A stretch of 64,000 nucleotides of DNA from Bacteroidota bacterium (GCA_021324735.1 JAJPIO010000011.1:22612-86611), one strand, 5' to 3'; positions 2,730 through 29,868 are shown, counted from the first letter of the stretch. Notes: generated from the letters alone by a model not told the origin. Numbers and translations are program-made.

Positions 2730-2859
2730 CGTGGTAAGAGTGTTGCGTCAATAATGGATGGCCGCGCCTTGAACAACATTTAAAGAAAGATAGTATCGTC
2801 TCCAAATGCAGCCACACGACCATTGAACTTAGCGACAGACGACAGCAATTATTCTTCCA

Positions 2860-3054
2860 TTATCCTTCTTTACGCGTCCCATTCGTTCGATTTTGCATCT
2901 CTTGAATTTCCAGCCAGAGCTCAAAAAGCTTGTCGTTCGGAGTAAAATTCTTCTTCGGACATGCGATCAAAAATTGTTCTTCCAAGGTGATGAGTTGATC
3001 GCGCTCGCGGTCGGTTGTTGGCCAAAATAGAGCGTTTTTCAAATAATTTTCCAT
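2860..3054 (-). CDS. Hypothetical small protein (64 aa)
   Basis: ORF lying upstream of glgP on the same strand. No recognisable motifs. Confidence 0.2.
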   Translation of the reverse strand: MENYLKNALFWPTTDRERDQLITLEEQFLIACPKKNFTPNDKLFELWLEIQEMQNRTNGTRKEG

Positions 3055-3238
3055 TCTTCGAAAGAGTCAAGCTGATGACGGATCCAGCTTTTTGCTTTTT
3101 ATCAGCTTATTTCACCTCTTTCCATTCAACTGCAATACCGCTAACTACCTGATAAGAAGACAGTTAGAGCTGTAAATTAATAAAGCCTTCGCATAGGGCT
3201 TCTTGTCATTAATCCTGCCTGGGGTGGGGAGAAGAATA

Positions 3239-3285
3239 GAAAACCGAAATAATAGAAAAGACCCGCATCGTACCGGATGCGGGTC
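3239..3285 (-). terminator. Rho-independent terminator candidate (minus strand)
   Basis: Perfect 10-bp inverted repeat GACCCGCATC-gtaccg-GATGCGGGTC at 3260-3285. On the minus strand it is followed by a T-rich tract (TTTTCTATTATTTCGGTTTTC). Confidence 0.45.
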
Positions 3286-3544
3286 CTACCGTTTAACGGA
3301 ATTGGATAAAGGTTTCTCAGAATGCCGAACAACCAAATCCAACCAGCAGAACTGAGTGTCATCCTCCTAAGAGAAAGACGAAAGTTGGCAACGCTCCCTT
3401 AACGCTAAATTATCAATGGTGTTCCGATAAACGATTTTCTTAATATAGGATTTGCCTCATACACTTCTCACTAAACATTAAATAGCGACATAATTTAACC
3501 AATAAGTATATATTAAACATTAAATTTACTAATTTTATCCACAA

Positions 3545-3994
3545 TTGGGAACTAATTTTGACCTTTTTGTTGTTATATTAATGTTGATTTTCTTCCTTAA
3601 GAAAAATATGCTTAAATTACATCAAATCTCCCCTCTTAAATTCGGTCGGTCATCTAATGCTCTTCCCATTGAAGACTCGTTCGAAGACACTACTTCCTAT
3701 GCCGACGAGCCCCTATTCGAAGATAACTTCGATGAATTACAGGACCTCGATGAGGATGATCTCGATCATTACGACGATGCATTCCCCTTCTCGGAAGGTG
3801 ATCTCCGCTTTCTGCGGGACTTCATTCTGAGCTCTGCCACCTACGTGGAAGAGCTGGAATCTCTCGTCTGTGATAGCTCGGAGGATTTCTGGGAAGCGCG
3901 TGAACATGCATATCGCATTGTCACTGCGGCGCTTATTAATTACTTCCTCTATGAGATGGAAGAGACAGCCTCCGAAGCAGACTACCGAGACTAA
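3545..3994 (+). CDS. Highly acidic hypothetical protein; first gene after the AT-rich island boundary
   Basis: ORF of 149 aa, or 128 aa if translation starts at MLKLHQ (3609). About 30% D/E (EDSFEDTTSYADEPLFEDNFDELQDLDEDDLDHYDD...). It is preceded by a 200-bp AT-rich promoter-like stretch and sits directly upstream of the large terminase, co-oriented with it. Confidence 0.5.
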   Translation: MGTNFDLFVVILMLIFFLKKNMLKLHQISPLKFGRSSNALPIEDSFEDTTSYADEPLFEDNFDELQDLDEDDLDHYDDAFPFSEGDLRFLRDFILSSATYVEELESLVCDSSEDFWEAREHAYRIVTAALINYFLYEMEETASEADYRD

Positions 3995-4081
3995 CCCTAA
4001 GCACAACCCAGGACTTCTCGGACCTCGGGTATTGCATTATCGTGACCCGTAGGTCCGGGGAAGTCCAACAAATCTTCTCTT

Positions 4082-5674
4082 ATGCCTAAGAAAAACCACC
4101 AAAATAAAGCTGGCCCTAAAAGCAAACCAAAAAATAAGGCAGACCCCAAACCAAAACGAACCGAAATTGAAACAGAACGAAATAAAGAACCGCCTCTCGA
4201 TCCGGTCACTCTCGATCTTCCGTCCTTCGCCGAAAAACTTCTCGATGTTCAATGCTGGCAAAAAATGCGTGAGATCTTCGATCTTGTAGAACGCGGCGAG
4301 CGCAAAATTTTAGTGCGCAGTTGCAACGGCGCTGGCAAAACCACCGCACTCGCCGCCATCTGTAATTGGTATTTTACTCACTACGATGATTCGATCGTAT
4401 TGACCACTGCTTCATCGTGGATTCAAGTACGAAGAAATCTCTGGGGCGAAATTCGACGACAAGCACGAAAGGGAAGGCTGTATTTGGATAAGGATATTAT
4501 TCGCGGCCCGACGAGCGTGCAAGCAAGCGACAAACATTTTATGATCGGCATTTCGCCGAATATCCCGGAGAACGCGATGGGCTTTCATGCACCGCACATG
4601 CTCATCGCTGTGGATGAAGCGACCGGGATCGATCACGAGATCGTGACCGCACTTCTCGGTAATCTCAGCAGCACCAATTCACAGATCGTCATGATCTGCA
4701 ATCCCATCGATAAAGATTCATATCCCTATGAAGCCGAACGCTCCGGTGAATGGAAGGTCGTTTCTATTTCCGCCTTCGATCATCCGAATGTGGTAGAGAA
4801 TTGCGAGGTCATTCCGGGTGCGGTCACCCGCGAGTGGATCGAGGACAGCGTTCGCGCATGGTCGTTCGAAGTGACTCCCGATGCATCCGAACCGCTTACA
4901 ACGCTACAGATCCCGTGGACCGACAAATGGTACCGGAGTAATGCGCCCGTTCAGGCTCGCATACTTGGCGAGTGGGCTCAGCTCGAGTCTGCAGGATTTA
5001 TTCCGATCGAACTCATCGAACGCAACGTGCGGAAAACACCATCCCTGTTTGGAGAACCTCATCATCAACCCTCTTCCGACACACGGCCACGAATGCGCGT
5101 TATGGGCGTTGATATTTCTCGCGGTGTTGGCAGGGATGCGACGATCTACGCATACTTCGATGTCGTCCCGGATGGACCTGATGTGCAGCGGCAGTTTCTC
5201 AGGACCTACGGTGATGACCTCATGCGAACTGCGGATCGGATACGGACGGAATACGAAAACGCTAAAGCACAAGGTATCGAACTTGTTATTGCGCTCGATG
5301 ATACTGGCTTAGGAGGCGGCGTGAGCGACCGATTGAAACGCATTGACATACCGTTCTTTCCGGTAAACTTCTGTCAAAGGCCGCACGGCTTTATTCGAGG
5401 TAAAGATATTGCGAACGCGAAAGCCGAAATGTTTTTCATTCTTCACGATGAACTGCTCGAAGGCAAAATTCAGATCGTCGACCTGCCGCGATTCCATCAG
5501 GAGTTATCTTCCATTCGCCTGGATGTAAGTAAAACTTCAACGGCCTACAAAATGGAAGACAAAGAGGAAACCCGCAAGCGCCTCCATCGTTCACCCGATT
5601 ACGCCGATGCTACGGCGCTCGCGCGATATGCTCTCTGGCTTCACAAATATTCGAAGAAGAATTGGTTGCTCTGA
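4082..5674 (+). CDS. terL: Phage terminase large subunit (ATPase plus RNaseH-like nuclease) with a Lys/Pro-rich N-terminal extension
   Basis: Walker A motif VRSCNGAGKTT and Walker B motif LIAVDEATGI. The C-terminal nuclease region contains MGVDISRGVGRDATIYAYFD and ALDDTGLGGG acidic residues. The first ~60 aa are KKNHQNKAGPKSKPKNKADPKPKR. Confidence 0.85.
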   Translation: MPKKNHQNKAGPKSKPKNKADPKPKRTEIETERNKEPPLDPVTLDLPSFAEKLLDVQCWQKMREIFDLVERGERKILVRSCNGAGKTTALAAICNWYFTHYDDSIVLTTASSWIQVRRNLWGEIRRQARKGRLYLDKDIIRGPTSVQASDKHFMIGISPNIPENAMGFHAPHMLIAVDEATGIDHEIVTALLGNLSSTNSQIVMICNPIDKDSYPYEAERSGEWKVVSISAFDHPNVVENCEVIPGAVTREWIEDSVRAWSFEVTPDASEPLTTLQIPWTDKWYRSNAPVQARILGEWAQLESAGFIPIELIERNVRKTPSLFGEPHHQPSSDTRPRMRVMGVDISRGVGRDATIYAYFDVVPDGPDVQRQFLRTYGDDLMRTADRIRTEYENAKAQGIELVIALDDTGLGGGVSDRLKRIDIPFFPVNFCQRPHGFIRGKDIANAKAEMFFILHDELLEGKIQIVDLPRFHQELSSIRLDVSKTSTAYKMEDKEETRKRLHRSPDYADATALARYALWLHKYSKKNWLL

Positions 5675-5678
5675 GTTT

Positions 5679-5850
5679 GTAGCCGTAGTTCGTAGCCGTA
5701 GCCTTCAGGCTACGCCGTAGGAATAGGCACCCTTACAAATCGTGCGAAGAATCTTCGATGTTCACCAATTGACAACCGTGTTGGCTTCCCACAGCCGCAA
5801 GCTAAAGCATGCGGCTACAATTCGTAGCCGTAGCCTTCCTAAAGCATGAA
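5679..5850. repeat. Dispersed intergenic repeat R1 (~135-bp family; contains hairpins CGTAGCC-ttca-GGCTACG and CCGCA-agctaaagca-TGCGG)
   Basis: About 75% identical over ~135 bp to 7337-7475 (R3). The core ccccacagccgcaagctaaagcatgcggctacaatt is identical to 6575-6612 (R2). Confidence 0.7.
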
Positions 5851-5871
5851 AAGCGAGAACGGCTTATGACG

Positions 5872-6348
5872 TTAGTTCGGCGCGATGAGGTAGCGAATAC
5901 TGCCTTGTATCTGGACGGAATCGTCGGGTAGTCCAACAGGCGACTGAATTGCAGTGATGGAGAATACGGTCGTATTGCCGGTATTGCTTGTCGGTGTGGG
6001 TGCGAAACTCACACCCCACCAGCCATCGCTCGCCTCCTGTGGTATCACATCGTAGCCAGAAGGTGGCGGAGGGTCGAACGTCATCACCATCGGTGGCTTT
6101 CCATCCGCACGTTTGGCCGGATCCGCCCACCTAAAATAAAGGCGGTAGAGCGTGGTGCAGTCACCTGCGGCCTTCGGAGACTTGAGGGTATAAGCCGCGG
6201 TGTATGAGATTGTAGTATTTAGTTGAGCGGTCTGAATATCGCCGCTGCAATCATCCGGAGGCGCGACGTTCCCGCTCGAATCATGACAACTGATATTCGT
6301 GAGCACCAGGACGGCGAGCACACACATATACAACAGAAGACGTTTCAT
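5872..6348 (-). CDS. Lipoprotein of unknown function (moron-like), paralog 1
   Basis: Signal peptide with a lipobox (MKRLLLYMCVLAVLVLTNISC). Shares the motif Y..YFRWADPAKRADG..PP with the downstream paralog. Confidence 0.55.
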   Translation of the reverse strand: MKRLLLYMCVLAVLVLTNISCHDSSGNVAPPDDCSGDIQTAQLNTTISYTAAYTLKSPKAAGDCTTLYRLYFRWADPAKRADGKPPMVMTFDPPPPSGYDVIPQEASDGWWGVSFAPTPTSNTGNTTVFSITAIQSPVGLPDDSVQIQGSIRYLIAPN

Positions 6349-6574
6349 ACAACCTCCGACAAGAAAAAAATGACAACTCTCAGAGCAAATATACAATGCT
6401 ACTTAATGGGCAGTGCAAAAAATCAGGATGGACAGTTGTCAAAACATATAACAAAGGCCGGTAAGGACGTGCGTTCAGCGGAGCCCGCGCGCGTGAGCGC
6501 AGTCGAAATCGGTACACAACCATAATGATGCTCGCAAACGCCGGGCTCGATATGTGGCAGATAACATTACCCGC

Positions 6575-6612
6575 TCCCCACAGCCGCAAGCTAAAGCATG
6601 CGGCTACAATTT
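6575..6612. repeat. Repeat R2 (core hairpin unit of the R1/R3 family)
   Basis: Exact copy of the R1 core ccccacagccgcaagctaaagcatgcggctacaatt. It ends in TACAATTTG. Confidence 0.65.
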
Positions 6613-6621
6613 GCGGCGACG

Positions 6622-7158
6622 CTACTTCTTCGGGAAGTTATTGTAAAAATAAATTCGGCAGACGATCTCTGTGCTATCGATGGCGGCGGCCTCCCAGTCG
6701 AGCCGGCAACCAACATAATACTGCGTAGTGGGATAACCGCTGTTCTTATTACCGATGTTGAAATCGATCACCCACCAATCTCCCATAATGAGATTTCCAT
6801 TAGCATCCATAACCGTATCACGACGAAACACGGGCGCGGGATGTGGAAAGTAAGCAAACTCGGCCAGCGGCTGAAAGGCATGCTCCAAATTTAGGAGCGG
6901 TGGCATATCGTTATCGATCGCGCGCTTGGCTGGATTCGCCCATCGAAAGTTGAAGATATACTCGGCTTCACAATCGTTGCGGGCCGTTGGCGTTTGAAGT
7001 TCGAAAAATTCGCCGTTATTATGTATGACCTTCTGAGCGATCACGTAATGCCCGCCCCCGCAATCGTCATTAACCGTAGCTTCCGAACCGGTTTTGCACG
7101 CCGAGAGCGCCATCGCAGTTAGCAGAAGAGAAAAGCGAACCATGCTATGAGTATTCAT
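6622..7158 (-). CDS. Lipoprotein of unknown function (moron-like), paralog 2
   Basis: Signal peptide plus lipobox (LLLTAMALSAC). The motif YIFNFRWANPAKRAIDNDMPP is paralogous to the 5872..6348 product. Confidence 0.55.
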   Translation of the reverse strand: MNTHSMVRFSLLLTAMALSACKTGSEATVNDDCGGGHYVIAQKVIHNNGEFFELQTPTARNDCEAEYIFNFRWANPAKRAIDNDMPPLLNLEHAFQPLAEFAYFPHPAPVFRRDTVMDANGNLIMGDWWVIDFNIGNKNSGYPTTQYYVGCRLDWEAAAIDSTEIVCRIYFYNNFPKK

Positions 7159-7336
7159 AATACTCCTCCTTAAGTCAGAAGGAAAATGCGCAAGCTAAAT
7201 GCCCGCCCGAATTAGGCGTAAATCGCGATTGAAATGGGCACTCCGGCATCGTTAAGCGCTCGGATCTCGGAAGAATCTTACGGGAGGATTAAAAATCTTA
7301 AAAGCTACTCGATACACTTTTGGTGCAGCGGACAAA

Positions 7337-7475
7337 GTTCGTGGCCGTAGCCTTTTAGGCTACGCCGTGGGGAATAGGCATCATCACGAACCCTGCGAAA
7401 GATCTTGTGACGGGTACCAATGACAACCATATCGCTTCCCAACAAACGCAAGCTGAAGCATGCGCTACATCTATT
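7337..7475. repeat. Repeat R3 (full-length homolog of R1)
   Basis: Collinear with R1: GGCCGTAGCC-tttta-GGCTACGCC hairpin, then gaataggca...tgacaacc...cgcaagctgaagcatgcgctaca. Confidence 0.7.
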
Positions 7476-9138
7476 CGATGCATTTCGGAGGCCGTTGAAA
7501 ATTCGAATCTGTGGCGATACGCTCTTGAAACGCCCTCGCTATATCGCTATAATGTGGCGAGCGGGTATCAACGAAGAATTCAAGCTCGTACAGATAGGGC
7601 ACGAGTGCAATAGGCACATAATTCCGAAATTCCGGGGACTGAGCCAACAGTGAATATTGTGATCCAATTAACCCGTGTCCTTCTTCAAAAATAGACTGAC
7701 ACGTATCCTGTGTATTTGTTCTGGGTATGAGTGGCAATATAATGAGGTCCGGTTTTTTCTCTACAATGAAATCGATAACCTGCTGCACATATTTGGCGTG
7801 GGCGATCTCATTCGTGTTAAGGCCGACGGGATCGATATGCCGAAGCTCCGAATAATACGGCAGTTCACCAGCATCAGCCCATGCCAAAGTGATTGAATCA
7901 TGCTGGGGAATGGCCCGCAACATTGTAGCAACTTCGAGATACGTATCGCGATCCGACTTAAGCCAACCGCGTGGTATTCGCATGAAACCCGTAGCAGCCA
8001 CAAACACCGCAATAACGAGAATCCCAAGCACTGTTGCACCACTCATGCGGAGCGCACCCAATCGCCAACAGGAAAGCTTTCGGGCGATACTCCCTGCCCC
8101 CGGTGCGGCAAGGCAAAATAGAATCGCTTCGATCGAAAGCGTGAATCTCCCATACCCGGCCTGCAGAAGATGCGAGAAAAGATAAAACGTGCTGAGCAAC
8201 ACGCACCACAAGAGTGCGCTACGAAGAACCGGGATGCGCCAAATGGCTCGAATACCTAGTATGGCAGGAATAACGAGAATGAGCGTCCGAATGTAAAATC
8301 TTCCGATCGTACCATAGCCCGGGAAAATGCGGCCGAGAAGTGTTTGCGAGGGTGCGGCCGACTGGACAACCTTCACATAGAACGAGTTCGGAAGCAAGTT
8401 GCCAAAATACCATAGCTTCCATAGTGCATATAATATCAACGGCGCAACAAAATAAGCGGCGAAGCTTCGCACCGTTGCACCTCGATCCTCAACTTGTTTT
8501 TGGAACAGGGCAACAAAGAGGAGAACAACACCTAACAGCGCACCCTCTGGTCGCACAAGAGCGGTCAGCGTTGCGAAAACAAATGCGGCATTAAGCCGAC
8601 CCGCTGAAAATGCCCATAGGGCGAACAAGAGCAGCATCACAAATACACTTGATTCGAGGCCGCTGTATGCGTTCATCCACGTCCAGGGATCGAGCAAGAA
8701 CAACACTGAAATCACTAGTGCAACTTTCCGCGCAAACAGAGACAGCGAGCCGGTTTGGATCGAAGCCAGGACCGGGAGAATAATACGATAGATCGCTATC
8801 GCCGACAAGCAAACTGCCAAGACGCCAATAAGCTGCGATACAAGGAGAAGATTAGATCCAAGCGCACTAAATGGCACCAGCAATAGCATATAGAGGAAAT
8901 TGGTGTAGCCTTCCGTATGAGCACCACCGGCATTCCATACGATACCAAGACCTTGTGCTACGTGCTGCGAGTATCGAAAGGTGATATAAGTATCATCGAG
9001 CACATACCCCATTCGCACGGGCCACCACAGCGTCCCAACCAGCAACGCGATCGTAACAAGTACGAACGACGAATTACGCGCAACGAACGGTAATTCGTCG
9101 CGCTTCGGGACTTCCACTTTCGTCGTCACATCTAACAT
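7471..9138 (-). CDS. Polytopic membrane protein, GT-C-fold glycosyltransferase-like (ArnT/PMT/arabinofuranosyltransferase-like)
   Basis: 555 aa with at least 10 predicted transmembrane helices. The N-terminal first-loop motif DDTYITFRYSQHVAQGLGIVWN resembles the DD-containing first extracytoplasmic loop of GT-C glycosyltransferases. It has a large C-terminal soluble domain. Confidence 0.6.
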   Translation of the reverse strand: MLDVTTKVEVPKRDELPFVARNSSFVLVTIALLVGTLWWPVRMGYVLDDTYITFRYSQHVAQGLGIVWNAGGAHTEGYTNFLYMLLLVPFSALGSNLLLVSQLIGVLAVCLSAIAIYRIILPVLASIQTGSLSLFARKVALVISVLFLLDPWTWMNAYSGLESSVFVMLLLFALWAFSAGRLNAAFVFATLTALVRPEGALLGVVLLFVALFQKQVEDRGATVRSFAAYFVAPLILYALWKLWYFGNLLPNSFYVKVVQSAAPSQTLLGRIFPGYGTIGRFYIRTLILVIPAILGIRAIWRIPVLRSALLWCVLLSTFYLFSHLLQAGYGRFTLSIEAILFCLAAPGAGSIARKLSCWRLGALRMSGATVLGILVIAVFVAATGFMRIPRGWLKSDRDTYLEVATMLRAIPQHDSITLAWADAGELPYYSELRHIDPVGLNTNEIAHAKYVQQVIDFIVEKKPDLIILPLIPRTNTQDTCQSIFEEGHGLIGSQYSLLAQSPEFRNYVPIALVPYLYELEFFVDTRSPHYSDIARAFQERIATDSNFQRPPKCIE

Positions 9139-9202
9139 TTGAGAGACATACTAACGCATCCTTCTTCTAATTCATCATTCATAATTCATCATTTCCTATG
9201 AC

Positions 9203-10507
9203 ATGAACCTCAATCTTGGAAAATACTCACTCACATTAAAACGAACGAAGCCTCCGAGCGCACAAGAACGCGCGCAGGCAAGCAGTGTCGGGAGCGGCTT
9301 GTTGCCGTGGCCGCCAGGCGGCGTGCCGGCGGTCTATCCCTCGGCTCGCGAAGATCTCGTCGAAAATTTCCAGCAAATTCGCGAGACCGTTGCTATTTGC
9401 ATGCACGCTCGAAGCGAGGCGATCGGGCGAGGGAAATTTCATGCCCTCGACAGATCCGGTAACGGACCACGGGTAAAAGGTAACGGACCGCGGGTAAAGG
9501 GTAAGGATCCGGCTCAACTAAGCCTTTTCCCATCTCCCTTGTCTAGCGACCATCCTCTATCGAAGCTTCTCGCGAATCCGAATCCGCTCTTCGACATGAG
9601 CGATCTGCTCGAGCTGTCGAGCCAATGGCTCGATGCGACGGGCAATTCGATCTGGTTAAAGGTACGCGATGGCAACGGTACCGTCGTTGAGCTATGGCCC
9701 GCAAGCTCGCTTTCGTTCATCATCGATCGCGGCAACGACGGACTTCCGCTCTCGTACCGCTTCCTGCCTTCGAATACCATCATTCCGGCAAACGATGTCA
9801 TTCATATTCGGCGCCCGGATATTCGGATGAGCCCGTTCTTCGGTCACGGCGTAATTTCGGACATCCTCGATACTGCCAAAGCCGATACGGCGGTCCGTCT
9901 TTTTCAATCTCGATTTTTCGAGAACGACGCATGCCCACGAGCGGTGCTCCGCTGGCCGCCAGGGGCACTTATGACGCAGGACGAAATGGACCGACTTCGC
10001 AATGCATGGGAATCGAAATACGCCTCACCGGCGAACGCAGGGCGCATCGGAATACTGCCGGATGGCGGCGAAGTGCAGCTGCTCGGCTCCGGCGCGAAAG
10101 AGCTCGATTTCTCGCGCTCGAAAGAAGAGCTCCGCAATGCTATTCGCGAGGCGTTTCGCGTACCGAAAATATTTTTTGGCGATACCGATAATGTCAATCT
10201 TTCGAATGCGGAAACGAGCTATTCGGTCTTCATGCGCGATGTCGTCGATCACGCGCTTGCCAAACATGCGCAGGCGCTTACGCGCGGATTAGCCGCGGAA
10301 TTCGAATCACCCGATCGCCCGGCTGGAAATATCATCATCGAGCATGAATCGCTCGTGACCGAATCCGACGATCGATTCCTCGCTCGTGTAGCGGAGCTAA
10401 AACAAGCGATGACGATCGACGAACAGCGGGCCCTTGTGGGACTCACTCCGCTCTCCAATGGCCGCGGCAACGCCTTTATTCTTGGAAATCAGATCATTGC
10501 TCCATAA
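9203..10507 (+). CDS. Phage portal protein (HK97-family-like)
   Basis: 434-aa ORF in the terminase-portal-protease-capsid order. The central and C-terminal regions are portal-like. It contains an 18-bp tandem repeat encoding GNGPRVKGNGPRVKG. Confidence 0.8.
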   Translation: MNLNLGKYSLTLKRTKPPSAQERAQASSVGSGLLPWPPGGVPAVYPSAREDLVENFQQIRETVAICMHARSEAIGRGKFHALDRSGNGPRVKGNGPRVKGKDPAQLSLFPSPLSSDHPLSKLLANPNPLFDMSDLLELSSQWLDATGNSIWLKVRDGNGTVVELWPASSLSFIIDRGNDGLPLSYRFLPSNTIIPANDVIHIRRPDIRMSPFFGHGVISDILDTAKADTAVRLFQSRFFENDACPRAVLRWPPGALMTQDEMDRLRNAWESKYASPANAGRIGILPDGGEVQLLGSGAKELDFSRSKEELRNAIREAFRVPKIFFGDTDNVNLSNAETSYSVFMRDVVDHALAKHAQALTRGLAAEFESPDRPAGNIIIEHESLVTESDDRFLARVAELKQAMTIDEQRALVGLTPLSNGRGNAFILGNQIIAP

Positions 10508-10508
10508 T

Positions 10509-11069
10509 ATGAATATCCTCCACAAACAACTGATCGCAACCTCGGTCGATACTGCGCCATTGCCACACTCCGTTCGCAAGGACGGCAACATGAACCCTCG
10601 TCAGCGGTGGCTAAAGATGGCGACCGGCGACGTCGACCGAGCCGGTGACATTATCGTGATCGCCGGAATCGAGGCGGATAACTTCCTTAAGAATCCCCAA
10701 TTCCTCTGGCAGCACGGCGCGTCCGGCTCGCTCATCAATACGATCGGCCGCATTCTACAATTAGTACAAGCCGAGAATGCGCTCTATGCTCTCGCCGAAT
10801 ATGCGTCCGCCGAGCTATCACCGCTTGCCGAACAAGTCTATCAAATGGATGTGGCTGGCCTGCTGCCTGCCAATTCGATCGGCTTTCGTCCGCTTGAATA
10901 CGAAGCGAATGAGTTCGGCGGATTCACTTTCACCAAATGGGAGCTCGTCGAATGCTCCAAAGTCGAACTGCCGATGAATCCAAATGCAGTGGACAACGGA
11001 GAGTGGAGAATGGAGAACTCTCTCTCTTCGGGTTCTGCAGATCTTGCAGTCGTTTGGCTGCTCCAATAA
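10509..11069 (+). CDS. Prohead maturation protease, HK97 family (peptidase U35)
   Basis: DRAGDIIVIAGIEADNFLKNPQFLWQHGASGSLINTIGRI matches the U35 signature (D..GD.i..GAF...L...P.LLW.H....PIG). The start codon overlaps the portal stop (TAATATG). Confidence 0.7.
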   Translation: MNILHKQLIATSVDTAPLPHSVRKDGNMNPRQRWLKMATGDVDRAGDIIVIAGIEADNFLKNPQFLWQHGASGSLINTIGRILQLVQAENALYALAEYASAELSPLAEQVYQMDVAGLLPANSIGFRPLEYEANEFGGFTFTKWELVECSKVELPMNPNAVDNGEWRMENSLSSGSADLAVVWLLQ

Positions 11070-11141
11070 ATGCGATACGTATCTGATAAGCAACGTATCC
11101 CAATTCTCCATTCACCACTCTCCATTCTTCATTTTTTTTAT

Positions 11142-11210
11142 GAGCGTAAGCTAAAGCATACGCCTACGAATTCACCCCTACGAGCGTAAGCTGAAGCTTA
11201 CGACTACCAC
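11142..11210. repeat. Repeat R4 (two tandem hairpin units of the R-family)
   Basis: GCGTA-agctaaagca-TACGC and CGTAAGC-tgaa-GCTTACG. Stems stay paired through compensatory substitutions relative to R1-R3. It lies between the protease and capsid genes. Confidence 0.65.
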
Positions 11211-11231
11211 ATTTCTCTTTAGTTTTTTCCA

Positions 11232-12497
11232 ATGAATATCAACGAACAAGACAACACCATCACCGCAACACGCGACGAATTCAATACCATCATCGACAAA
11301 GCGCTCGACCGAAAACTCAAGTCAATCCCGGATCGAAGCGCCATAACTGCGCTCAGTTCTAAGTCCTCAGTTCTTAGTTCTGAATCGGGAATATCTCCAT
11401 CACTCGGGAGCACTCAGGACTCAGCACTTAGCGCTAAGATTCAGAAGACATTTCGATTCTTCAATGCTGTAGCGCAGAACGATCATGCCACACTGCGATC
11501 GATCATGCAGAGTTACGAGCCGGAATACGTTCGTACACTTTCGCCGCAGGTCGAAGGAACGGCCTCTGCCGGTGGCTATCTCGTGCCACCGGAATTCTAC
11601 TCCGATGTTCTCTTCCTGCTGAACGAATACGGCTTCGCACGTAAGTATTGCGCGCAGATCCAAATGTCGTCGAACGTGCTGAATGTATCGACGCTCACCG
11701 GCAAGCCCTCCGTTTCGTGGGTAAGCGAGACCAGCACGATCCCAACCAGCAAAGGCACCTTCGGACGCCTCACGCTCACCGCGCAAAAGCTGGCAGCCAT
11801 CTATCCGATCTCTAACGAACTCCTGCAGGACGCGAATGTCGATGTCTACAATACGATTCTTCGCATCTTTGTCGAAGTTTTCGGCGCGGAGGAAGATACC
11901 CAGGTCTTCCGCGGCGTTGGCTCTCCGTTCACCGGCATTCTCAACACCGACGGAGTATCGACCACTTATTTAGGCGCAAGCTCGACCTCCGGTAAAACGA
12001 AATATACTGATATCACGCTCGACGATCTCATCAATCTCGTTCAGTCGATCGGTCCGGCGCAGCAGCGCGACGCCGTGCTCTTTGTCGAGCAAAACACGCT
12101 CACCGATCTTCTCAAGAAAAAGGATTCGCAGAGCCGCTACTTGTGGGATATTGCAACGTCGAACGACCCACAGATTAGTGGCGCGAATGGATTCAGCGCA
12201 ACGAACCTGAAATTCCACGGATATCCGGTGGTAGCGCTGCCAAACGGAGTTATCATCGAGAGTTATGATGGCTCGAGCCACCCGAGCACACCATTCGCAC
12301 TCTTCGGCAACCTCAAGACAGCCGGCTGTTGGCTTGGCTCGCGCGGCGGAATGGAAATGCGTATTTCCTACGACGCTTCCTCCGATAACATGAACGCCTT
12401 CACCAACGATCTGCAGCTTCTCCGTGTGACGGAACGCATTGCCTTTGGCGTCGGCCAGCCGGGATACCTTGCGGTGCTTTCAACGAGTGCGTCGTAA
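11232..12497 (+). CDS. Major capsid protein, HK97 fold, with an N-terminal delta/scaffolding-like region
   Basis: 421 aa. The motif SAGGYLVPPEFYSDV is characteristic of HK97-family capsid proteins. The N-terminal ~100 aa are predicted helical and fit a delta domain. The gene follows the protease. Confidence 0.85.
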   Translation: MNINEQDNTITATRDEFNTIIDKALDRKLKSIPDRSAITALSSKSSVLSSESGISPSLGSTQDSALSAKIQKTFRFFNAVAQNDHATLRSIMQSYEPEYVRTLSPQVEGTASAGGYLVPPEFYSDVLFLLNEYGFARKYCAQIQMSSNVLNVSTLTGKPSVSWVSETSTIPTSKGTFGRLTLTAQKLAAIYPISNELLQDANVDVYNTILRIFVEVFGAEEDTQVFRGVGSPFTGILNTDGVSTTYLGASSTSGKTKYTDITLDDLINLVQSIGPAQQRDAVLFVEQNTLTDLLKKKDSQSRYLWDIATSNDPQISGANGFSATNLKFHGYPVVALPNGVIIESYDGSSHPSTPFALFGNLKTAGCWLGSRGGMEMRISYDASSDNMNAFTNDLQLLRVTERIAFGVGQPGYLAVLSTSAS

Positions 12498-12500
12498 CCT

Positions 12501-13082
12501 ATGCCTACTTTTACTTCTCCAGTGACCGTCGCCGATCTGCAGACGTATCTGCGAGACGTCTCGACGGACACGACCCTTCTCGGCTTTTACCAAACGCTGC
12601 TCGATACCGCGACCGAATCGGTCTACACCTGGCTCGACCGCGATTATACGGCGCTTGCAACGAAGACCGATCGCTTCTGGGGCGATGATACCGAGTTCTA
12701 CGCCCCGCATTATCCCGCGGGCAGCTTCGTGAGTTGGAGCTATATCGATATGAACGGCTTCGTCACCAGCCTCGACATTAGCGATCTCCTCATTCGAGCC
12801 AATGGCTATCTCGTGCAGGCAAAAACAAAGCGGTTCGTTTCGGGCGCAGAACATGCGATCACGTACAAGCAGCCCGCCACGCTCGTATGCCCGGAAACCG
12901 TAAAGCAGGTGATCGTCGAGATCGCAGCCCAGCTCTTCGATGAGAGCAATCAAGGCGCCGGCACACGCGGACTCTTATTGGCTACATCCAACGATGGCAT
13001 AAGCACCGATCGTGAGCGCTTCCTCGACCTCTCGGAGCGACACAAAGAAATGCTCCGGCCTTACAAACGCTATCCGGTCTAA
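12501..13082 (+). CDS. Head-tail connector/adaptor (gp6-like) with extra C-terminal sequence
   Basis: The N-terminus VTVADLQTYLRDVSTDTTLLGFYQTLLDTATESVYTWLDRDY matches the gp6-like connector pattern. At 193 aa it is about twice the usual length. Located directly after the capsid gene. Confidence 0.55.
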   Translation: MPTFTSPVTVADLQTYLRDVSTDTTLLGFYQTLLDTATESVYTWLDRDYTALATKTDRFWGDDTEFYAPHYPAGSFVSWSYIDMNGFVTSLDISDLLIRANGYLVQAKTKRFVSGAEHAITYKQPATLVCPETVKQVIVEIAAQLFDESNQGAGTRGLLLATSNDGISTDRERFLDLSERHKEMLRPYKRYPV

Positions 13083-13163
13083 CAATGCTGAAGGATGGAT
13101 TATAAACGGCGAGAGAAGCTCTCACAACCGATCATAATTCATCCTTCCTAATTCGCAATTCCC

Positions 13164-13607
13164 ATGACAAGAGAACTTCTCTTCTTCAATAACTTCGAGA
13201 CACAATTTGGCGAGTTTAGCGGGTGGCGTTCGCTTGCCGAGCAACGCGGTGTGAAAGATCTTGCACCCGGCGATTATCCTGGCTTCGAGGTCACTCCGGG
13301 CGAAGCCCGATATACCGAATACGATACCTACGGACATCCCTATGGCGGCGAGCAGGATTTTACGCTTCGCATCGTCTTCGCGCATCCGCAGTGTGCATTC
13401 CAACCGGTGCGTACGATGCACGCGGAGTTCGTCTCGCTCGTCGAGCAGTTTTTTACCGGCGGATACATCTCGCCAACGCTCGATCTCAGCGATCGCGCGC
13501 GGATCAATGGTATCACACTGCTCAAGATCGAATCACCGGTCACGAATAAGATCGCCACGCATACCACCATCATTGTGCGAGCACAATACTCGTTCACATT
13601 AATATAA
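13164..13607 (+). CDS. Hypothetical phage structural or head-completion protein
   Basis: 147-aa ORF co-oriented in the morphogenesis operon. It is preceded by the conserved ATAATTCATCCTTCCT upstream motif. No recognisable domain. Confidence 0.45.
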   Translation: MTRELLFFNNFETQFGEFSGWRSLAEQRGVKDLAPGDYPGFEVTPGEARYTEYDTYGHPYGGEQDFTLRIVFAHPQCAFQPVRTMHAEFVSLVEQFFTGGYISPTLDLSDRARINGITLLKIESPVTNKIATHTTIIVRAQYSFTLI

Positions 13608-13644
13608 AACAGAAGACGGAGTGATGAATGGTGAGTGATGAACG

Positions 13645-14178
13645 GTGAATGATACTTTCCGGCGACGCCTATTTCAGCCTACCTTTACCCTTACCCTTTA
13701 CCCCATACCCTACTCTATCCTCTGTCATCTATCCACTACCCTGATGACCAATCTCTTTCTTCGGTATCGCATGACCGATACCGACCCGTGGACCACATTT
13801 CCGGACATCACCAGCGCGTTTCCCGGTCAGCCTACGGGCAGCTTGCCGGTCTCTTCCACGACCATCGCAAGTGAGCCGCTTACCGTCGAGCCCGGCGCTG
13901 GTGGACAACTCTATCTCGAATTCCCTACCACCGACGACGACCATCTTGCCCTGCGGGTAACATGCCCGCCTATTCCTCTCGCGTTAGCAACGACGATCCT
14001 AACATTCCTCATGCAATATCGTCTTGCGCCATCGCATGAAGCAAAGCACGAGCGGTTCGGGCAAGGTGGCTTCATCAGTGCTTCACTTTCGCTCATCAAA
14101 GCGCAGGAGCGCAATGGCATGCTGCATTTGGAGTTTCGCCTTGTAGCAACGATGAACGATGCTCTAATCAACTTCTAA
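13645..14178 (+). CDS. Hypothetical phage protein; the start codon may be internal (13744 or 13771)
   Basis: ORF in the operon with no motif. Alternative in-frame ATG codons lie closer to a plausible N-terminus. Confidence 0.4.
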   Translation: MNDTFRRRLFQPTFTLTLYPIPYSILCHLSTTLMTNLFLRYRMTDTDPWTTFPDITSAFPGQPTGSLPVSSTTIASEPLTVEPGAGGQLYLEFPTTDDDHLALRVTCPPIPLALATTILTFLMQYRLAPSHEAKHERFGQGGFISASLSLIKAQERNGMLHLEFRLVATMNDALINF

Positions 14179-14179
14179 T

Positions 14180-14794
14180 ATGCTCTATACTCTCTTATTA
14201 CTCGCACTCTCGCCCACCACGTCCGTCGAGCAAGCGGTACAACACGCTTTAGCAGCGGATTCCCTCGCAGCCCGGCAAACAATGCTCGTTCCTTTTCGCG
14301 AAGAGATCGACCGTGCGGCCGCAAAATACACACTGCCCTCTTCGCTTATTGCTGGTGTTATACAGGAAGAATCTCGCTTCGATGAATGGGCGACGAGAAG
14401 CGAACCCGGTTATCTCGCGAACAAACGCATTCGGCATGAAGCGATACGCTGGGCGCGCGTGCATCCCGGCAGCGCGACCGCACTCACCGAACTCAACGAT
14501 CGCTCCCGATCGTACGGCCTCATGCAGATCATGGGTGAGACCGCACGGCAGCAGGGCTGCTCAATGCGGTTCCTCGCTGAACTCTACATGCCCGACAGCG
14601 CTATCGATCACGGTGCGCGATTACTGAAACGCCTTATCCTTCGGTATCACGGCGATACACTTTCGGCTATCAGCGCGTATAACCAGGGCAGTGCACGTAA
14701 GCGGCGCGGCACATTCGCTAATGCTCGTTATGTCTATCGGGTAACCGTCGCATGGCGCGCGTACGATACTCTCTTCCGGAAAGGAGATGAGTAA
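14180..14794 (+). CDS. Lytic transglycosylase (SLT domain) with signal peptide
   Basis: Catalytic motif AGVIQEESRFD, plus GLMQIMG and SAYNQG. Has an N-terminal signal peptide. Confidence 0.8.
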   Translation: MLYTLLLLALSPTTSVEQAVQHALAADSLAARQTMLVPFREEIDRAAAKYTLPSSLIAGVIQEESRFDEWATRSEPGYLANKRIRHEAIRWARVHPGSATALTELNDRSRSYGLMQIMGETARQQGCSMRFLAELYMPDSAIDHGARLLKRLILRYHGDTLSAISAYNQGSARKRRGTFANARYVYRVTVAWRAYDTLFRKGDE

Positions 14795-15291
14795 TGCAGA
14801 TCAAATGGCAATATGCAGCAGCGCTCGTTGGCATTGCTTTCTTCATTGGTGTGCTGATCTCTTACAGAAGCTCTGCACCAACAACCAACGGCATCTCACA
14901 CGAGAAGCAAGTCTACCGGATGAGATTTGACACTGCGAAAACAACTGTGGCTGTGCCAGTGGGACGCATACGACTACGAGGACCGATGGCGCACAAACTG
15001 GCTGCTGATTCTACAACAAGCATCGCGTGCTTAGATACTATTCTGAGAATGGATACTACGGCCTTAGCGCCGGATACCCTCTCTGTTTGTTTTGCGCGAG
15101 ATACCTTCTCACTTCGGTTGGGCTTTAGCCCGAGGCAGAAAGAAGTATCGGTGCCGTATATCGCACACGATACATTCTACTCGCAGATCGATACGATCCG
15201 TATTGCCGGGGGAAGCTCGCGAGCGTGGTACGATGATGCGCTTATTATCATCCTTTCTATTGCCGCAGGAATAATTCTGGGACGGCTATAA
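14794..15291 (+). CDS. Membrane protein with N- and C-terminal transmembrane helices (possible lysis accessory)
   Basis: Translationally coupled to the transglycosylase (TAATG overlap). Transmembrane helix at residues 8-24 and a C-terminal helix ALIIILSIAAGIILGRL. Confidence 0.45.
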   Translation: MQIKWQYAAALVGIAFFIGVLISYRSSAPTTNGISHEKQVYRMRFDTAKTTVAVPVGRIRLRGPMAHKLAADSTTSIACLDTILRMDTTALAPDTLSVCFARDTFSLRLGFSPRQKEVSVPYIAHDTFYSQIDTIRIAGGSSRAWYDDALIIILSIAAGIILGRL

Positions 15292-15325
15292 GAATGCGAT
15301 AAAAAGCATAGCCATAAAAAGAGAA

Positions 15326-15354
15326 CGGGTAACGAGCATATCACTCGTTACCCG
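15326..15354. terminator. Bidirectional intrinsic terminator between the head module and the convergent cargo gene
   Basis: Perfect 11-bp inverted repeat CGGGTAACGAG-catatc-CTCGTTACCCG, flanked by T-rich or A-rich tracts on both sides. Confidence 0.6.
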
Positions 15355-15378
15355 CTTCTTATTTGCGTTACTTAACCT

Positions 15379-18300
15379 TTAATCCTTCTGCAGGATAAAC
15401 TTACGAATGACCGTATAACCGTTCATCGTAATGCGCGCGAAGTACGTGCCTTCGGACATATTCTGCGTCGGAATGGAGAGCGTATGTTCGCCCTTCTCCA
15501 TCGGGCCATTTGCAATCTGCGAAACCGAAGCACCGAGCAAGTCAACCACATCGACCGAGACGTTCGCTTCGAGGTTCGTCGTGAATTTCAGCGTAGCCGC
15601 ACTCGAGCCTTTATGTGCCGGATTCGGAATGACCTCGATGCCCTGCATCGGCTGTAGCTTGCCTTGCAACGCGATCATCATGATCGAATCCGAACATGTA
15701 AGATTGAGTCGGACTGGCACTACGTCGCCAGCCGATTGAGCAGACATGCTGCAACGACCAAAGTTTGGATCGGACTGGTTGAACGCCGATTGGCCAATGC
15801 TAACCGTACCTTGGTCAGTATTACTGATGGAAGGCACCATTGTAACTGTCGCAAGATCGGAATTCGCTGGAAGACCAGTATTGGGAATACCTGTAATCTT
15901 GATTACCATTGGTCCCGTCGCACTAGTCGATTGATCAGCTGCAGTTGCAACGCTTTGTATCGGCTTGTTCCTCGTTAAAATACCGGTTGGATACTGAAGC
16001 TGAATTGTGAGATCCGTCGCACCAGTACCTGCTGGTATCGGCTCAACATTAATGATTTTAAAGACCGCCTGTTGTACGCCATCCACTCTAATCGGCATTG
16101 CATTCGATGAAGCATCGAGTGCCAATCCAAGATGAATATTATACTGTGAGCCCGTCGTCACACCAATTAGATGCAGCGTCACTGTTCCGTGATCGGTATT
16201 GATAGTTAGTATATCGTTATCGCTACCGGTTGCATCGGGATTGTATTGTAAAGTGATCTGAATGGATTGACCACTGGTTAACGTGACGGGACCCGTAAAC
16301 CCGCTCAGTGAGAACTTACTTCCGCCTGCCAACGACACATTGTTAACGATCACGGTACCGTTATTCGCAGTTATCGTATAGGTCTTTTTCAATATCACAC
16401 AACGCGGTGTCGAGTAATTACTATCGAGCGGTTGCGGCCCGAGCGTAAATGTCGTCACCTGATGCGTCGAGCAATCGCGGAAGGTTACCGAATACGGCTC
16501 CGTGATCGTGCGGCCGCTGATATCTGTCAGTGTGATCGTGCCGGAAAGCGTCTGTCCAACAGTACCGGTAAAGTGTACTGTAAAGACCTGGTTACTGCCG
16601 GTATTGATCGTCACTGGAAGCGTCGGGCTTGCGAGGCTTACCCCACTACCAGCCGCGAAGGTCTGAATGATGAACGGCAAGCAATCGCCGCCATTAGCGA
16701 CCGTAAACGTGAGATCGGTATCGCCACACGGGTTAGCCGCGAGCGCCGTCGGAAGTACGTTGGAGACGATCGAAGGAGGCAATATTTTACCGATCACCGT
16801 GAAGGATGTGCTCGGCGCCTCTTGTCCGCCAGTGCTCGTAACCCCAAACGTGATCTGGTCGGTATCGCTAGCTCCGTTTACAGTAGTATCCGAAAGCGAT
16901 TGCGGCTTCAGACACACCGTAAAGTGCAGCGAGTCCTTTGCACGGATCGTATCATTGTCAAGCGTTACCCGGAACGCCGCATGGGTCGGTCCCGTCAGGA
17001 GCCGGATGAGGCCAGGCGTACACGAGGTATTCAGTATCGTACCGCGAATACAGTTCGAATCGCAATAGCGGATCGTGCCAAGAGCTAACGTGTCCGGTCC
17101 ACCGATTGAGGCGACTACACCGGTTATGCAATGTGCGTGCATACCAATGATCTGCGGTCCTTTGGTATCTTCCGCATACGTCAGGACGATACTTCCGGTG
17201 TTATCCTGATCGCTGCCCGTGCAGGAGCACGGAATATAGCGAATCGTGATCGCCGTATCGTGGCCAGGTTTGAGTGAGAACGGCAGCGTCGGTCCCGACA
17301 CCATTTGGAAATTCGAAGCGCCCGTCAACTGGATCTTCGTCAATGTGAGCGGCACGCAGACCGGGCTGATCTTTAGCGTTCGCGTTTGTGACGAATCACA
17401 GCAACTGACCCCTCCAAATTCGATCTTACTGGGGCTTACCGCCCCTTCATACGTAATAGCATTTTGAACATTGAATGAGACCGAGATAGAGGTATCAAAG
17501 TGTTCAACAGAGGCACACTGAGTACCAGTGGTCCCGACATTGAAATGGAATGTAAAGGTCGCGTTATGCTGTCCCGGATCACACTTGGGAATAAGTACCG
17601 GTATCTTGAGCAGATTATATGGTCCGATCTTGATCGGGAAGTGCAAGGGCGGCTTCGACCCAAGGCTATCGATCTGGAAGTAACTGCCCTGCGGACCTGT
17701 AACGTCGATACCTTGCAAGATAATGGTATCGCAGGTCGTATTGAGGAAGTAGACCGCTGAATCATGGATCGAGCAGCAGTCTTTTACATTCTCGTTGAAC
17801 CCTCGAAGTGTTACGCCAACCGTCGTCGTCGTTACACCGGTCACACTGAAGCTAGTCCCGACAAAGGTGGTATCGCATCGTGCTCGCACGTTAACACCAA
17901 TGCTGGGCGCTTGACCAGGCGTCCTTCGTAGAGTGCCAGCAAAGTACACGTGTACATCGGCGCAATCGCCAGGTCCTAAACGGAAGGGCGTTGACGGCGC
18001 AAGTAACTGGATGATACATTGATCGCCGGTAACATCGAATCCGTCGACCTGCATGTTTTCACAACAACTTTGATTACAGATCTGGAGGACGGTATCAAGC
18101 TGAGTACACGCTGGCTCTCGAATATTGATCTTATTCGGAACAGCAGTAATTTTCGATGCAACACCAGCGCCAGTCACGTGGACAATAGTATCTACCGGTA
18201 CGCCATTACGAGTAAAATGGAAATGGTAATCTGCCGCATCGGACGACGGTGTTGTCGGTCGATATTGAATATCGATCGACGTGCTAACTGGAAGCGACGG

Positions 18301-19614: not shown

Positions 19615-20020
19615 AAGGGGACCAGACAAAATTGCTGGAGAAAATGAACACGAATCTCTAATGCTTAGCCGCGGTAAGACAGAACGGAATCCGACCACGT
19701 GCGGCTTAACAAAAAAGCAACATGAAACAGATGAGATAAATCTCACCCGTTAAATCGCTACAAATATACGATTTAGGCCGCTCGGTGACCCATTAACGCG
19801 TTTTTTGGAAGATTTACGACACATGGGAATGCCTCCTTTATAAGCTATGGCCAGGCTGCATCAATGACACAAAAGGCTACATGCCTAAAAAACGCACAGT
19901 CCGGCTGAAGCGGCAGTAACCCTCATAATGGAGGACACACAAAAGAGAAATAGGTAACCGGGTTATGACCAATTTGGCCAGGCGTTTTTTAGCAATTTTT
20001 ACCGAAAACCCGATCAGCGA

Positions 20021-27317: not shown

Positions 27318-27334
27318 GGAGCTTCAAATGGCTT

Positions 27335-29710: not shown

Positions 29711-29763
29711 GACTGAATTCCGGCTGAATTAGCCGCAATAAAGATATTTTACACCAGAGCTGT

Positions 29764-29796
29764 AACTCGGAGCCGTGTTCCGAGTTTTAGTTTTGG
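29764..29796 (+). terminator. Intrinsic terminator after paralog B
   Basis: AACTCGGA-gccgtgt-TCCGAGTT hairpin followed by TTAGTTTTGG. Confidence 0.55.
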
Positions 29797-29868
29797 CATG
29801 GTTAACTCTACTCCGTTGTTACAGAGATCCAAGGTCCAACCCGATTTTGACAATTATCTCGTATCCCT

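Follow-up and report, generated by a model that had tools for sequence, protein, structure and literature searches.

The window analyzed here is a stretch of 64 kb from a Bacteroidota bacterium (64,000 nucleotides; GCA_021324735.1, JAJPIO010000011.1:22612-86611). At 3.6-15.3 kb, open reading frame (ORF) listing and family scans delineate in it a phage-like head gene cluster of ~11.8 kb that lies between glgP and a gene encoding a cargo protein of the type IX secretion system (T9SS). Unnamed genes are labeled by ORF length (orf149, m174, m178, m555, u147, u177, for which the true length is 144 aa, and tm165), W denotes the window locus, and L-numbers denote related genome or metagenome loci. 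The initial annotation of the window described a co-oriented capsid morphogenesis operon at this place: all the genes that it listed are present where it put them, the acidic small ORF is real, and both proposed borders are borne out, namely, the AT-rich left edge (GC content of 0.41-0.42 vs. ~0.52 nearby) and a bidirectional hairpin terminator that is common to the cluster and the convergent T9SS cargo gene (Table 1).

Table 1. Features of the head gene cluster, its cassettes and repeats, with dN/dS from pairwise comparison of orthologs (positions are those of the window unless a locus is named; TM, transmembrane segment).
Feature	Position	Strand	Evidence or remark	dN/dS
orf149, small conserved protein	3608-3994 (ORF opens 3545)	+	probable start 3608	
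TerL, large terminase subunit (packaging ATPase and nuclease)	4082-5674	+	phrog_2, E 1e-25	0.11-0.19
Portal	9203-10507	+	PF04860, E 1e-41; phrog_12, E 4e-48	0.08-0.12
Prohead serine protease S78 (formerly U35)	10509-11069	+	PF04586, E 3e-5; phrog_80, E 1e-12	0.18-0.25
HK97-fold major capsid protein	11232-12497	+	PF05065, E 3e-42 over residues 114-416	0.09-0.14
Head-tail adaptor (head-completion/connector), 193 aa	12501-13082	+	phrog_442, E 4e-9; weak TIGR02215, E 0.011	0.10
u147, putative tail-terminator fold (gpU / T5 p142 / RcGTA g8-like)	13164-13607	+	predicted structure	0.15-0.24
u177, putative tail-tube-fold superfamily (tube, Hcp, tube initiator, Dit N-domain or stopper-like)	13744-14178	+	predicted structure	0.07-0.10
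SLT-family lytic transglycosylase	14180-14794	+	PF01464, E 2.5e-18; short hydrophobic N-terminus	0.12-0.13
tm165, membrane protein, 165 aa	14794-15291	+	N-terminal TM and conserved C-terminal TM segment (..AWYDDAL..AAGII.GKL); no family match	0.14-0.18
Flanking xseA-like gene				0.10-0.12
Cassette lipoprotein (lipobox ..NISC)	5872-6348	-	paralog of the 6622-7158 gene	
Cassette lipoprotein (lipobox ..LSAC)	6622-7158	-	motif F(R)WA(N/D)PAKRA in common with the 5872-6348 gene	
m555, cassette polytopic membrane protein, ~12 TM	7471-9138	-	orthologs with 41-49% identity in L001-L008 and L027	
glgP	408-2729	-	upstream flank	
Bidirectional hairpin terminator	15324-15356	.	15 pairs on the minus strand, 11 on the plus strand, T-rich tail after each	
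Palindromic repeat, window copies	5784-5822, 6573-6611, 7435-7473, 11133-11171, 11179-11207		gene 3' ends or cassette junctions	
Palindromic repeat, other loci	L004 777-844, 4143-4219, 4927-4999, 11987-12010; L017 2020-2035, 4943-4958, 10522-10537			
Lipoprotein-like arrays	L015 3-1584; L017 273-4991; L018 7561-9110; L019 6118-9041			
Lipoprotein-like arrays	L021 2921-4998; L023 7067-9305; L026 5949-7868; L036 5749-8815			

The cluster has relatives in other genomes. All 27 loci confirmed in a scan of one genome per GTDB species come from Kapaibacterium, Ignavibacteriota or Bacteroidota metagenome-assembled genomes (MAGs), including one complete chromosome (OY969726.1), and by tBLASTn and ORF clustering, the core order is the same in every locus: small protein, TerL, portal, protease, capsid protein, adaptor, u147 and u177, usually followed by the SLT-family transglycosylase and the membrane protein. 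The SLT gene is found in the clade nearer to the window locus and in L013, L014 and L023, and is always accompanied by tm165. Given that u177, SLT and tm165 are tightly coupled in the window, where SLT starts two bases past the u177 stop codon and the tm165 start overlaps the SLT stop codon, the latter two genes appear to belong to the module. The capsid protein family is tight, at 60-82% identity, after which there is an abrupt drop to 40% and 33%. In IMG/VR, no relative of the capsid protein closer than 33% identity was detected, and at that level, the relatives are typical tailed phages in which the head genes are immediately followed by tube and Dit genes.

In the nearer clade, the chromosomal position of the cluster is also conserved. 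On the downstream side, a T9SS cargo gene is present in W, L001, L003, L004, L005, L007, L011 and L027; xseA then follows in W, L004, L005, L007 and L027, as does dxs in W, L010 and L011. On the upstream side, W, L027 and, among the metagenome loci, L041 have glgP. The divergence of the cluster is similar to that of host genes: identity to the window is 75-80% for the capsid protein vs. 71-74% for dxs and 66-72% for xseA, and capsid proteins are 90% identical where xseA is 85% identical. The core genes are under purifying selection that is comparable to that on the neighboring xseA-like housekeeping gene. In our pairwise Nei-Gojobori (NG86) counts for the pairs with unsaturated synonymous sites (L004/L005, L004/L007 and L003/L007), dN/dS of the core genes is ~0.1-0.25, which overlaps the range for the flanking gene (Table 1). 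In comparisons with saturated dS, pN is still far below pS, and this holds also for the capsid, portal and neck genes of L014, L018 and L019, from which TerL is missing. The initial annotation had left the choice between a conserved domesticated locus and variable prophage occupancy to synteny across relatives, and the synteny points to the former.

Among the core proteins, TerL retains the motifs of both its activities: Walker A (CNGAGKTT) and Walker B (LIAVDEATG) are invariant across the orthologs, and so are all three acidic nuclease motifs (GVDISRG, ALDDTGLGGG and SPDYADATA). No relative of TerL with a solved structure was detected by sequence. The small protein encoded upstream, orf149, has an acidic, variable N-terminus, and its conservation is limited to a helical C-terminal domain of ~55 residues; orthologs are encoded immediately 5' of TerL or portal in 8 genome and 7 metagenome loci. 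It has no match in Pfam, PHROG or NCBIfam and is a candidate for the small terminase subunit (TerS) or for a regulator, but the TerS identity could not be demonstrated, in line with the initial annotation, which had noted that the island contains no recognizable TerS. In four loci, TerL is missing between the small protein gene and the portal gene, which adjoin or nearly adjoin each other, while the other head and neck genes are intact (L014 3051-5849, L018 5919-7520, L019 3905-5393 and L036 3787-5260).

The protease, for which the likely true start is at 10509, one base past the portal stop codon, is present in 24 of the 27 loci. The capsid protein carries an N-terminal extension of ~110 aa, presumably a delta or scaffolding domain, and its best relative by sequence among the solved capsid structures is the capsid protein of RcGTA, the gene transfer agent (GTA) of Rhodobacter capsulatus (E 6e-13 over ~200 residues). 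A hidden Markov model of the adaptor family finds an adaptor gene 3' of the capsid gene in the outgroup locus L033 as well; weak matches of the adaptor profile to lactococcal receptor-binding proteins in the PDB are probably spurious and were disregarded. The portal gene of the window contains a 21-nt tandem duplication at 9458-9499 (GGTAACGGACC(A/G)CGGGTAAA(A/G)) that encodes GNGPRVK twice, in the same variable loop in which L004 has an in-frame palindromic insertion. The closest cultured phage relative, at 28% identity, is an Oceanotoga phage, in which the neck region is unannotated.

For u147 and u177, no family was detected at the sequence level in PHROGs (searched with all orthologs), PDB profile searches or NCBIfam, so the fold assignments in Table 1 come from structure prediction. 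An exhaustive HMMER search of 1.84 billion proteins yielded 33 representative homologs of u147, of which 26 formed the alignment for AlphaFold2, and the resulting model has a predicted local distance difference test (pLDDT) score of 93.7. The alignment of u177 indicates a start at 13744 (MTNLFLRYR..., 144 aa) and thus corrects the start at 13645 given in the initial annotation; its structure was predicted from 12 sequences with a pLDDT of 80.9, and a fold search against BFVD returned no match at E <= 0.001. The alignments drew their members from this exhaustive search and from locus translations retrieved by exact match. Together, the two proteins constitute a private family of neck proteins. 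By fold, both are likely to be tail-proximal, and u177 might act as a stopper, as one ring of a tube or as a cap at the distal end. The order of adaptor, terminator-like and tube-like proteins after the capsid protein suggests a neck that would reach one or two rings past the head.

The description of the cluster as head-only in the initial annotation thus stands in one respect and changes in another. No tape-measure, baseplate, fiber, integrase or replication gene was found in the window or around the 27 related loci, and none of the window ORFs in the 3.4 kb upstream and 24 kb downstream of the cluster is an integrase, repressor, replication or tail gene. However, the two proteins previously listed as unknown, which follow the adaptor assigned by phrog_442, are predicted to have the terminator fold and the tube-superfamily fold, respectively, and would be tail-proximal.

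We propose that the cluster is a set of phage-derived capsid, packaging and neck genes that has been domesticated and is vertically inherited as a GTA-like ("viriform"-like) element of Kapabacteria chromosomes. We regard this reading as reasonably probable, and it follows from the conserved core order, the shared flanks in the nearer clade, the dN/dS values and the lack of close relatives in IMG/VR. It agrees with the GTA-like or domesticated head cluster that the initial annotation had offered as one option, given the core order kept in 27 species, the nearer-clade flanks, the host-like divergence and dN/dS of ~0.1-0.25.

Another option raised there, a decaying prophage remnant without present function, could account for the absence of tail, lysogeny and replication genes and for the loci that lack TerL, the protease or SLT. 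We consider it most improbable: the core genes are intact in nearly all 27 species, their dN/dS overlaps that of the xseA-like gene, and a neutral remnant would not last across divergences that largely saturate synonymous sites. A temperate prophage, intact or recently defective, was rejected given that no integrase, att sites, immunity repressor or full tail and lysis set was found and that the distribution is not patchy. An encapsulin-like system is ruled out by the presence of the portal, protease and TerL.

By analogy with the HK97-type assembly pathway, the capsid protein of the domesticated element would assemble on the portal, with its N-terminal extension serving as the scaffold; the S78 protease would mature the shell, and TerL, with its ATPase and nuclease motifs intact, would fill it with DNA. 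Rings of the adaptor, the terminator-like protein and the tube-like protein could then close the portal channel, resulting in a capsid that ends in a neck stub and lacks a tail shaft. Speculatively, release might involve opening of the cell wall by SLT and the membrane protein. The particle might subsequently join a tail encoded at another host locus, pirate the tails of phages or act tail-less. In the course of evolution, the junctions between core genes would have become landing sites for lineage-specific cassettes, such that the late operon "exploded" yet stayed functional.

Several observations weigh against domestication of this kind or narrow it. The particle, like everything past the gene list, is deduced from the genes. 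The fixed position holds for the nearer clade only, and the host flanks differ in the farther clade. L014, L018, L019 and L036 have no TerL at the canonical site, and the gene may have been relocated or lost in these loci; in a metagenome scan with the TerL profile, all close TerL relatives were in the canonical context. L015, L017, L019, L020 and L026 lack SLT and the membrane protein, and in L026, there is also no detectable protease gene and the capsid gene is N-terminally truncated. The gaps in TerL, protease and SLT in some loci may imply that the function is not uniform, or that some lineages do without packaging. Furthermore, most of the genomes are MAGs, some of them nanopore assemblies with frameshifts, and dN/dS was estimated by pairwise counting, with many pairs saturated at synonymous sites.

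A terminator normally caps a tube that is built on a tape measure and a baseplate. The presence of a terminator without these components is mechanistically odd and hints at tail genes elsewhere in the genome. The cluster could provide just the head and neck of a complete GTA-like or defective-phage particle encoded at split loci, with the tape-measure, distal tail, hub and fiber genes elsewhere in the same genomes, similar to RcGTA, which is encoded at several loci. We view this as a possibility of lesser probability. The cluster encodes proteins with terminator and tube folds that normally work only with a tail, and because the core genes are already parted by insertions of up to ~10 kb, separation of a tail module is plausible. 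Nevertheless, no tail gene was found within 10 kb on either side of any of the 27 loci from genomes, nor in the 49 kb over which the window extends downstream of the cluster, and in Alphaproteobacteria, there are documented cases in which tail genes were truly lost while the heads were kept (PMC9254644).

The initial annotation also considered a mobile capsid-forming satellite akin to the phage-inducible chromosomal islands that form capsids (cf-PICIs). The size of ~11.8 kb and the presence of TerL, portal, protease, capsid and adaptor genes of its own in the absence of a complete tail are compatible with this interpretation, which we nevertheless find scarcely tenable. The island lacks an integrase, a recombinase, a replication module, an HNH gene and a recognizable TerS, and no att-like direct repeats flanking it were found; the sole tRNA gene in the window is at 46.8 kb, 31 kb from the cluster. 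The chromosomal neighbors are the same across the nearer clade, the divergence tracks that of host genes, and IMG/VR contains no close relative.

The core is interrupted by variable cassettes at most of the junctions between its genes; these cassettes are lineage-specific and mostly encoded on the opposite strand. The window locus is compact, with a portal-to-u177 span of 5.0 kb compared to ~10-11 kb elsewhere, and in L036, the capsid and adaptor genes are separated by ~10 kb. In the window, a minus-strand cassette at 5872-9138, at the TerL-portal junction, encodes two lipoproteins and a membrane protein, none with a phage match. The first of the lipoproteins (5872-6348) has no homologs in the 27 loci and no match in Pfam, PHROG or PADLOC, whereas the second (6622-7158) has a relative in one metagenome locus, L037. 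The membrane protein, m555, occupies the TerL-portal junction in all loci of the nearer clade; its weak match to the cell-surface glycopolymer family NF046093 (E 0.0025) is far below the family cutoff, and it is possibly a GT-C-like enzyme that acts on a surface glycopolymer.

In the farther clade, there are tandem arrays, always at the portal-protease junction, of 2-8 paralogous genes on the opposite strand that encode lipoprotein-like proteins of ~160-200 aa with glycine-rich, hydrophobic C-terminal halves. There are 37 copies in the set, their number differs among species, and they belong to no Pfam, PHROG or PADLOC family. Other cassettes encode T9SS C-terminal-domain (Por_Secre_tail) cargo, C1q-like proteins, a 23S_rRNA_IVP four-helix protein and, judged from sequence only, a dihydrofolate-reductase-like protein.

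Some of the cassettes are related to defense, which is relevant to a further alternative. A PDC-M38A/B pair (AbiLi-like AAA_15 and DUF3226) is located at the portal-protease junction in L004 (6046-7786) and L005 (5819-7572; E 7e-85 and 1e-46), and in the metagenome locus L034, TerL is preceded by a TIR protein (CAP12-PCTIR) and by a weak match to a Y1 transposase (1385-2275 and 3540-4100). Conceivably, the element is a domesticated satellite that functions as an anti-phage device, with capsids and necks that, upon infection, compete for, cap or steal the tails or DNA of an invader, in the way that PICIs interfere with their helpers, and cassettes that add superinfection exclusion. This alternative draws on the defense or candidate defense genes in or next to the cluster, and exclusion is a classic role of moron-encoded lipoproteins and of membrane proteins that modify the surface. 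The gene content also resembles the packaging module of cf-PICIs (bioRxiv 10.1101/2025.02.11.637232). We deem an anti-phage device unlikely, given that most cassettes are not recognizable defense genes and that no helper-sensing regulator was found: an XRE family helix-turn-helix regulator is encoded divergently upstream, in the farther clade only.

The cassettes are accompanied by palindromic repeats. An 18-nt core (AGCCGCAAGCTAAAGCATGCGGCT) has 4 matches in the 64-kb window, against 0.05 expected, all within the island, and the hairpins of other species have different stems with the same CTAAAG center. Two of the L004 copies are in-frame insertions within TerL and portal that share the reading ..QNVAQTSVCDP..SQTKVCAT.., an arrangement reminiscent of the Rickettsia palindromic elements. 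The repeat is a candidate mobile element, terminator or packaging-related signal. An integron-like interpretation of the cassettes was considered because of the hairpin at each cassette 3' end and was rejected in view of the lack of an integrase and the mixed orientations.

Combining these observations with the domesticated, vertically inherited element favored above, we tentatively outline a more specific scenario, which we would not rate as probable. Under this scenario, Kapabacteria independently domesticated a phage head that forms DNA-filled capsids, which have a terminator/tube-like stub but no tail of their own anywhere in the genome; the particles would be completed by foreign tails or would deliver or expose DNA in another way, and the core genes would serve as fixed homology arms for the swapping of surface, secretion and defense cassettes among relatives. 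A cassette-swapping hot spot of this type would explain the existence of an old late operon with variable opposite-strand genes and island-specific palindromic repeats.

In the window, the cluster is flanked by glgP, the gene for an MBL-fold protein, T9SS cargo genes, dxs and xseAB. Downstream, the gene for a 1455-aa T9SS cargo protein is followed by dxs, xseB and xseA and then by a run of T9SS cargo genes up to ~40 kb. The 1455-aa protein (15379-19746, convergent with the island) contains BNR/Asp-box, ASH/Ig-like and Por_Secre_tail domains, and its gene keeps its position in eight species at ~29-34% identity, i.e., evolves much faster than the head genes. Further downstream, three paralogs lie in tandem at 23952-32265; the encoded proteins (1121, 791 and 798 aa) all combine an IgGFc_binding domain with a C-terminal sorting domain of the T9SS type. 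The interval that separates glgP from the island (2730-3545) contains two small minus-strand ORFs without a family match (2860-3054 and 3177-3362) and a strong terminator-like hairpin on the minus strand at 3258-3287; in L027, glgP is in the reverse orientation, yet still adjoins the island.

An Rfam scan of positions 1-24000 of the window gave no match, and no Bacteroidetes-type TAnnTTTG box was found upstream of the core genes. Directly 5' of the core genes that are preceded by a gap, there are G-poor leaders that consist of short tandem repeats (9150-9202, 13115-13163 and 13680-13743), exemplified by ttcatcattcataattcatcatt in the window and by ccactatccactctcaac, cttacttcttacc and aatccgcgtaatcc in other species; such leaders occur upstream of core genes in L001-L027. 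The last 50 nt before portal, u147 and u177 contain 2-4 G, and among 24 non-island genes of the window, one has 2 G and the next 5 G. These sequences may be shared translational or regulatory leaders.

Comparison with known systems helps to place the cluster. The late operons of the HK97-type siphophages that are its 33%-identity relatives (L031/L032) encode portal, protease and capsid proteins of the same Pfam families in the same direction. In those phages, the head genes run directly into tube, tape-measure-sized and Dit genes, whereas the Kapabacteria cluster ends after the gene for the tube-fold protein.

The cf-PICIs release DNA-filled, tail-less capsids and pirate phage tails (bioRxiv 10.1101/2025.02.11.637232). 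Their size of ~10-18 kb and the lack of a complete tail fit the ~12-kb cluster, which likewise has its own terminase, portal, protease, capsid and adaptor genes. In contrast, the cf-PICIs carry an integrase, replication and regulation modules, HNH and TerS but no lytic genes, are mobile and are identical across species; the Kapabacteria cluster has no integrase, replication module or HNH gene (in particular, a primase, replicase or alpA-like gene was not found in it), occupies a fixed position in the nearer clade and contains the SLT gene, which together with the membrane protein gene could be lytic.

The gene order of the cluster parallels RcGTA g1-g9. The similarity to RcGTA proteins is distant and at the family level for the capsid (E 6e-13) and portal (E 5e-5), and u147 and u177 match by predicted fold only. 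The RcGTA cluster continues with tape-measure, distal tail, hub and megatron genes, with fibers/spikes at other loci, none of which was found at the Kapabacteria locus, and the RcGTA stopper has no identified counterpart in the cluster unless it is the tube-fold protein. In terms of the definition of GTAs and viriforms (bioRxiv 10.1101/2022.06.10.494566), the structural genes derive from tailed phages and evolve with the cellular genome under purifying selection, and there are no lysogeny or replication genes. As for the definition's packaging of host DNA, with at most part of the element's own genes, and its transfer to other cells, the feature seen in the sequence is the intact set of TerL motifs. 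A complete delivery apparatus, with a tape-measure tube, distal tail or hub and receptor-binding proteins, was not found at the locus or within 10 kb in the 27 loci.

GTAs and related domesticated particles are known from a handful of lineages, and versions that are head-only and under selection have so far been found in alphaproteobacterial endosymbionts. The literature searches returned nothing on such clusters in Kapabacteria or Ignavibacteria, which agrees with the statement in the initial annotation that they are uncharacterized in the Fibrobacteres-Chlorobi-Bacteroidetes (FCB) group; the head-only architecture as such does have a published precedent. The closest published analog is the set of head/capsid-only GTA clusters of Holosporaceae/Rickettsiales endosymbionts, which show synteny, are inherited vertically and evolve under purifying selection (George et al., 2022; PMC9254644). 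These clusters similarly keep terminase, portal, protease, capsid and adaptor genes and lack tail parts, and some of the clades keep the stopper and terminator (PMC9254644). In contrast to the endosymbionts, the Kapabacteria are members of the FCB group that live freely in soil and peat, and their core is interrupted by opposite-strand cassettes, has SLT and the membrane protein attached, and includes a private neck family. Because the relationship to RcGTA is only distant, domestication was probably independent.

A second, probably independent case would suggest that selection has repeatedly favored keeping the phage head and neck while the tail is absent, and that this state is not just a step in decay. 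It would also indicate that numerous unrelated genes can interrupt a phage late operon that nevertheless stays under selection, in a form that prophage and defense-island finders would misread. The private terminator-fold and tube-fold families mark where the particle would stop, which makes its structure testable, and the many available Kapabacteria genomes offer a setting, next to that of the alphaproteobacterial endosymbionts, for asking what tail-deficient particles do.

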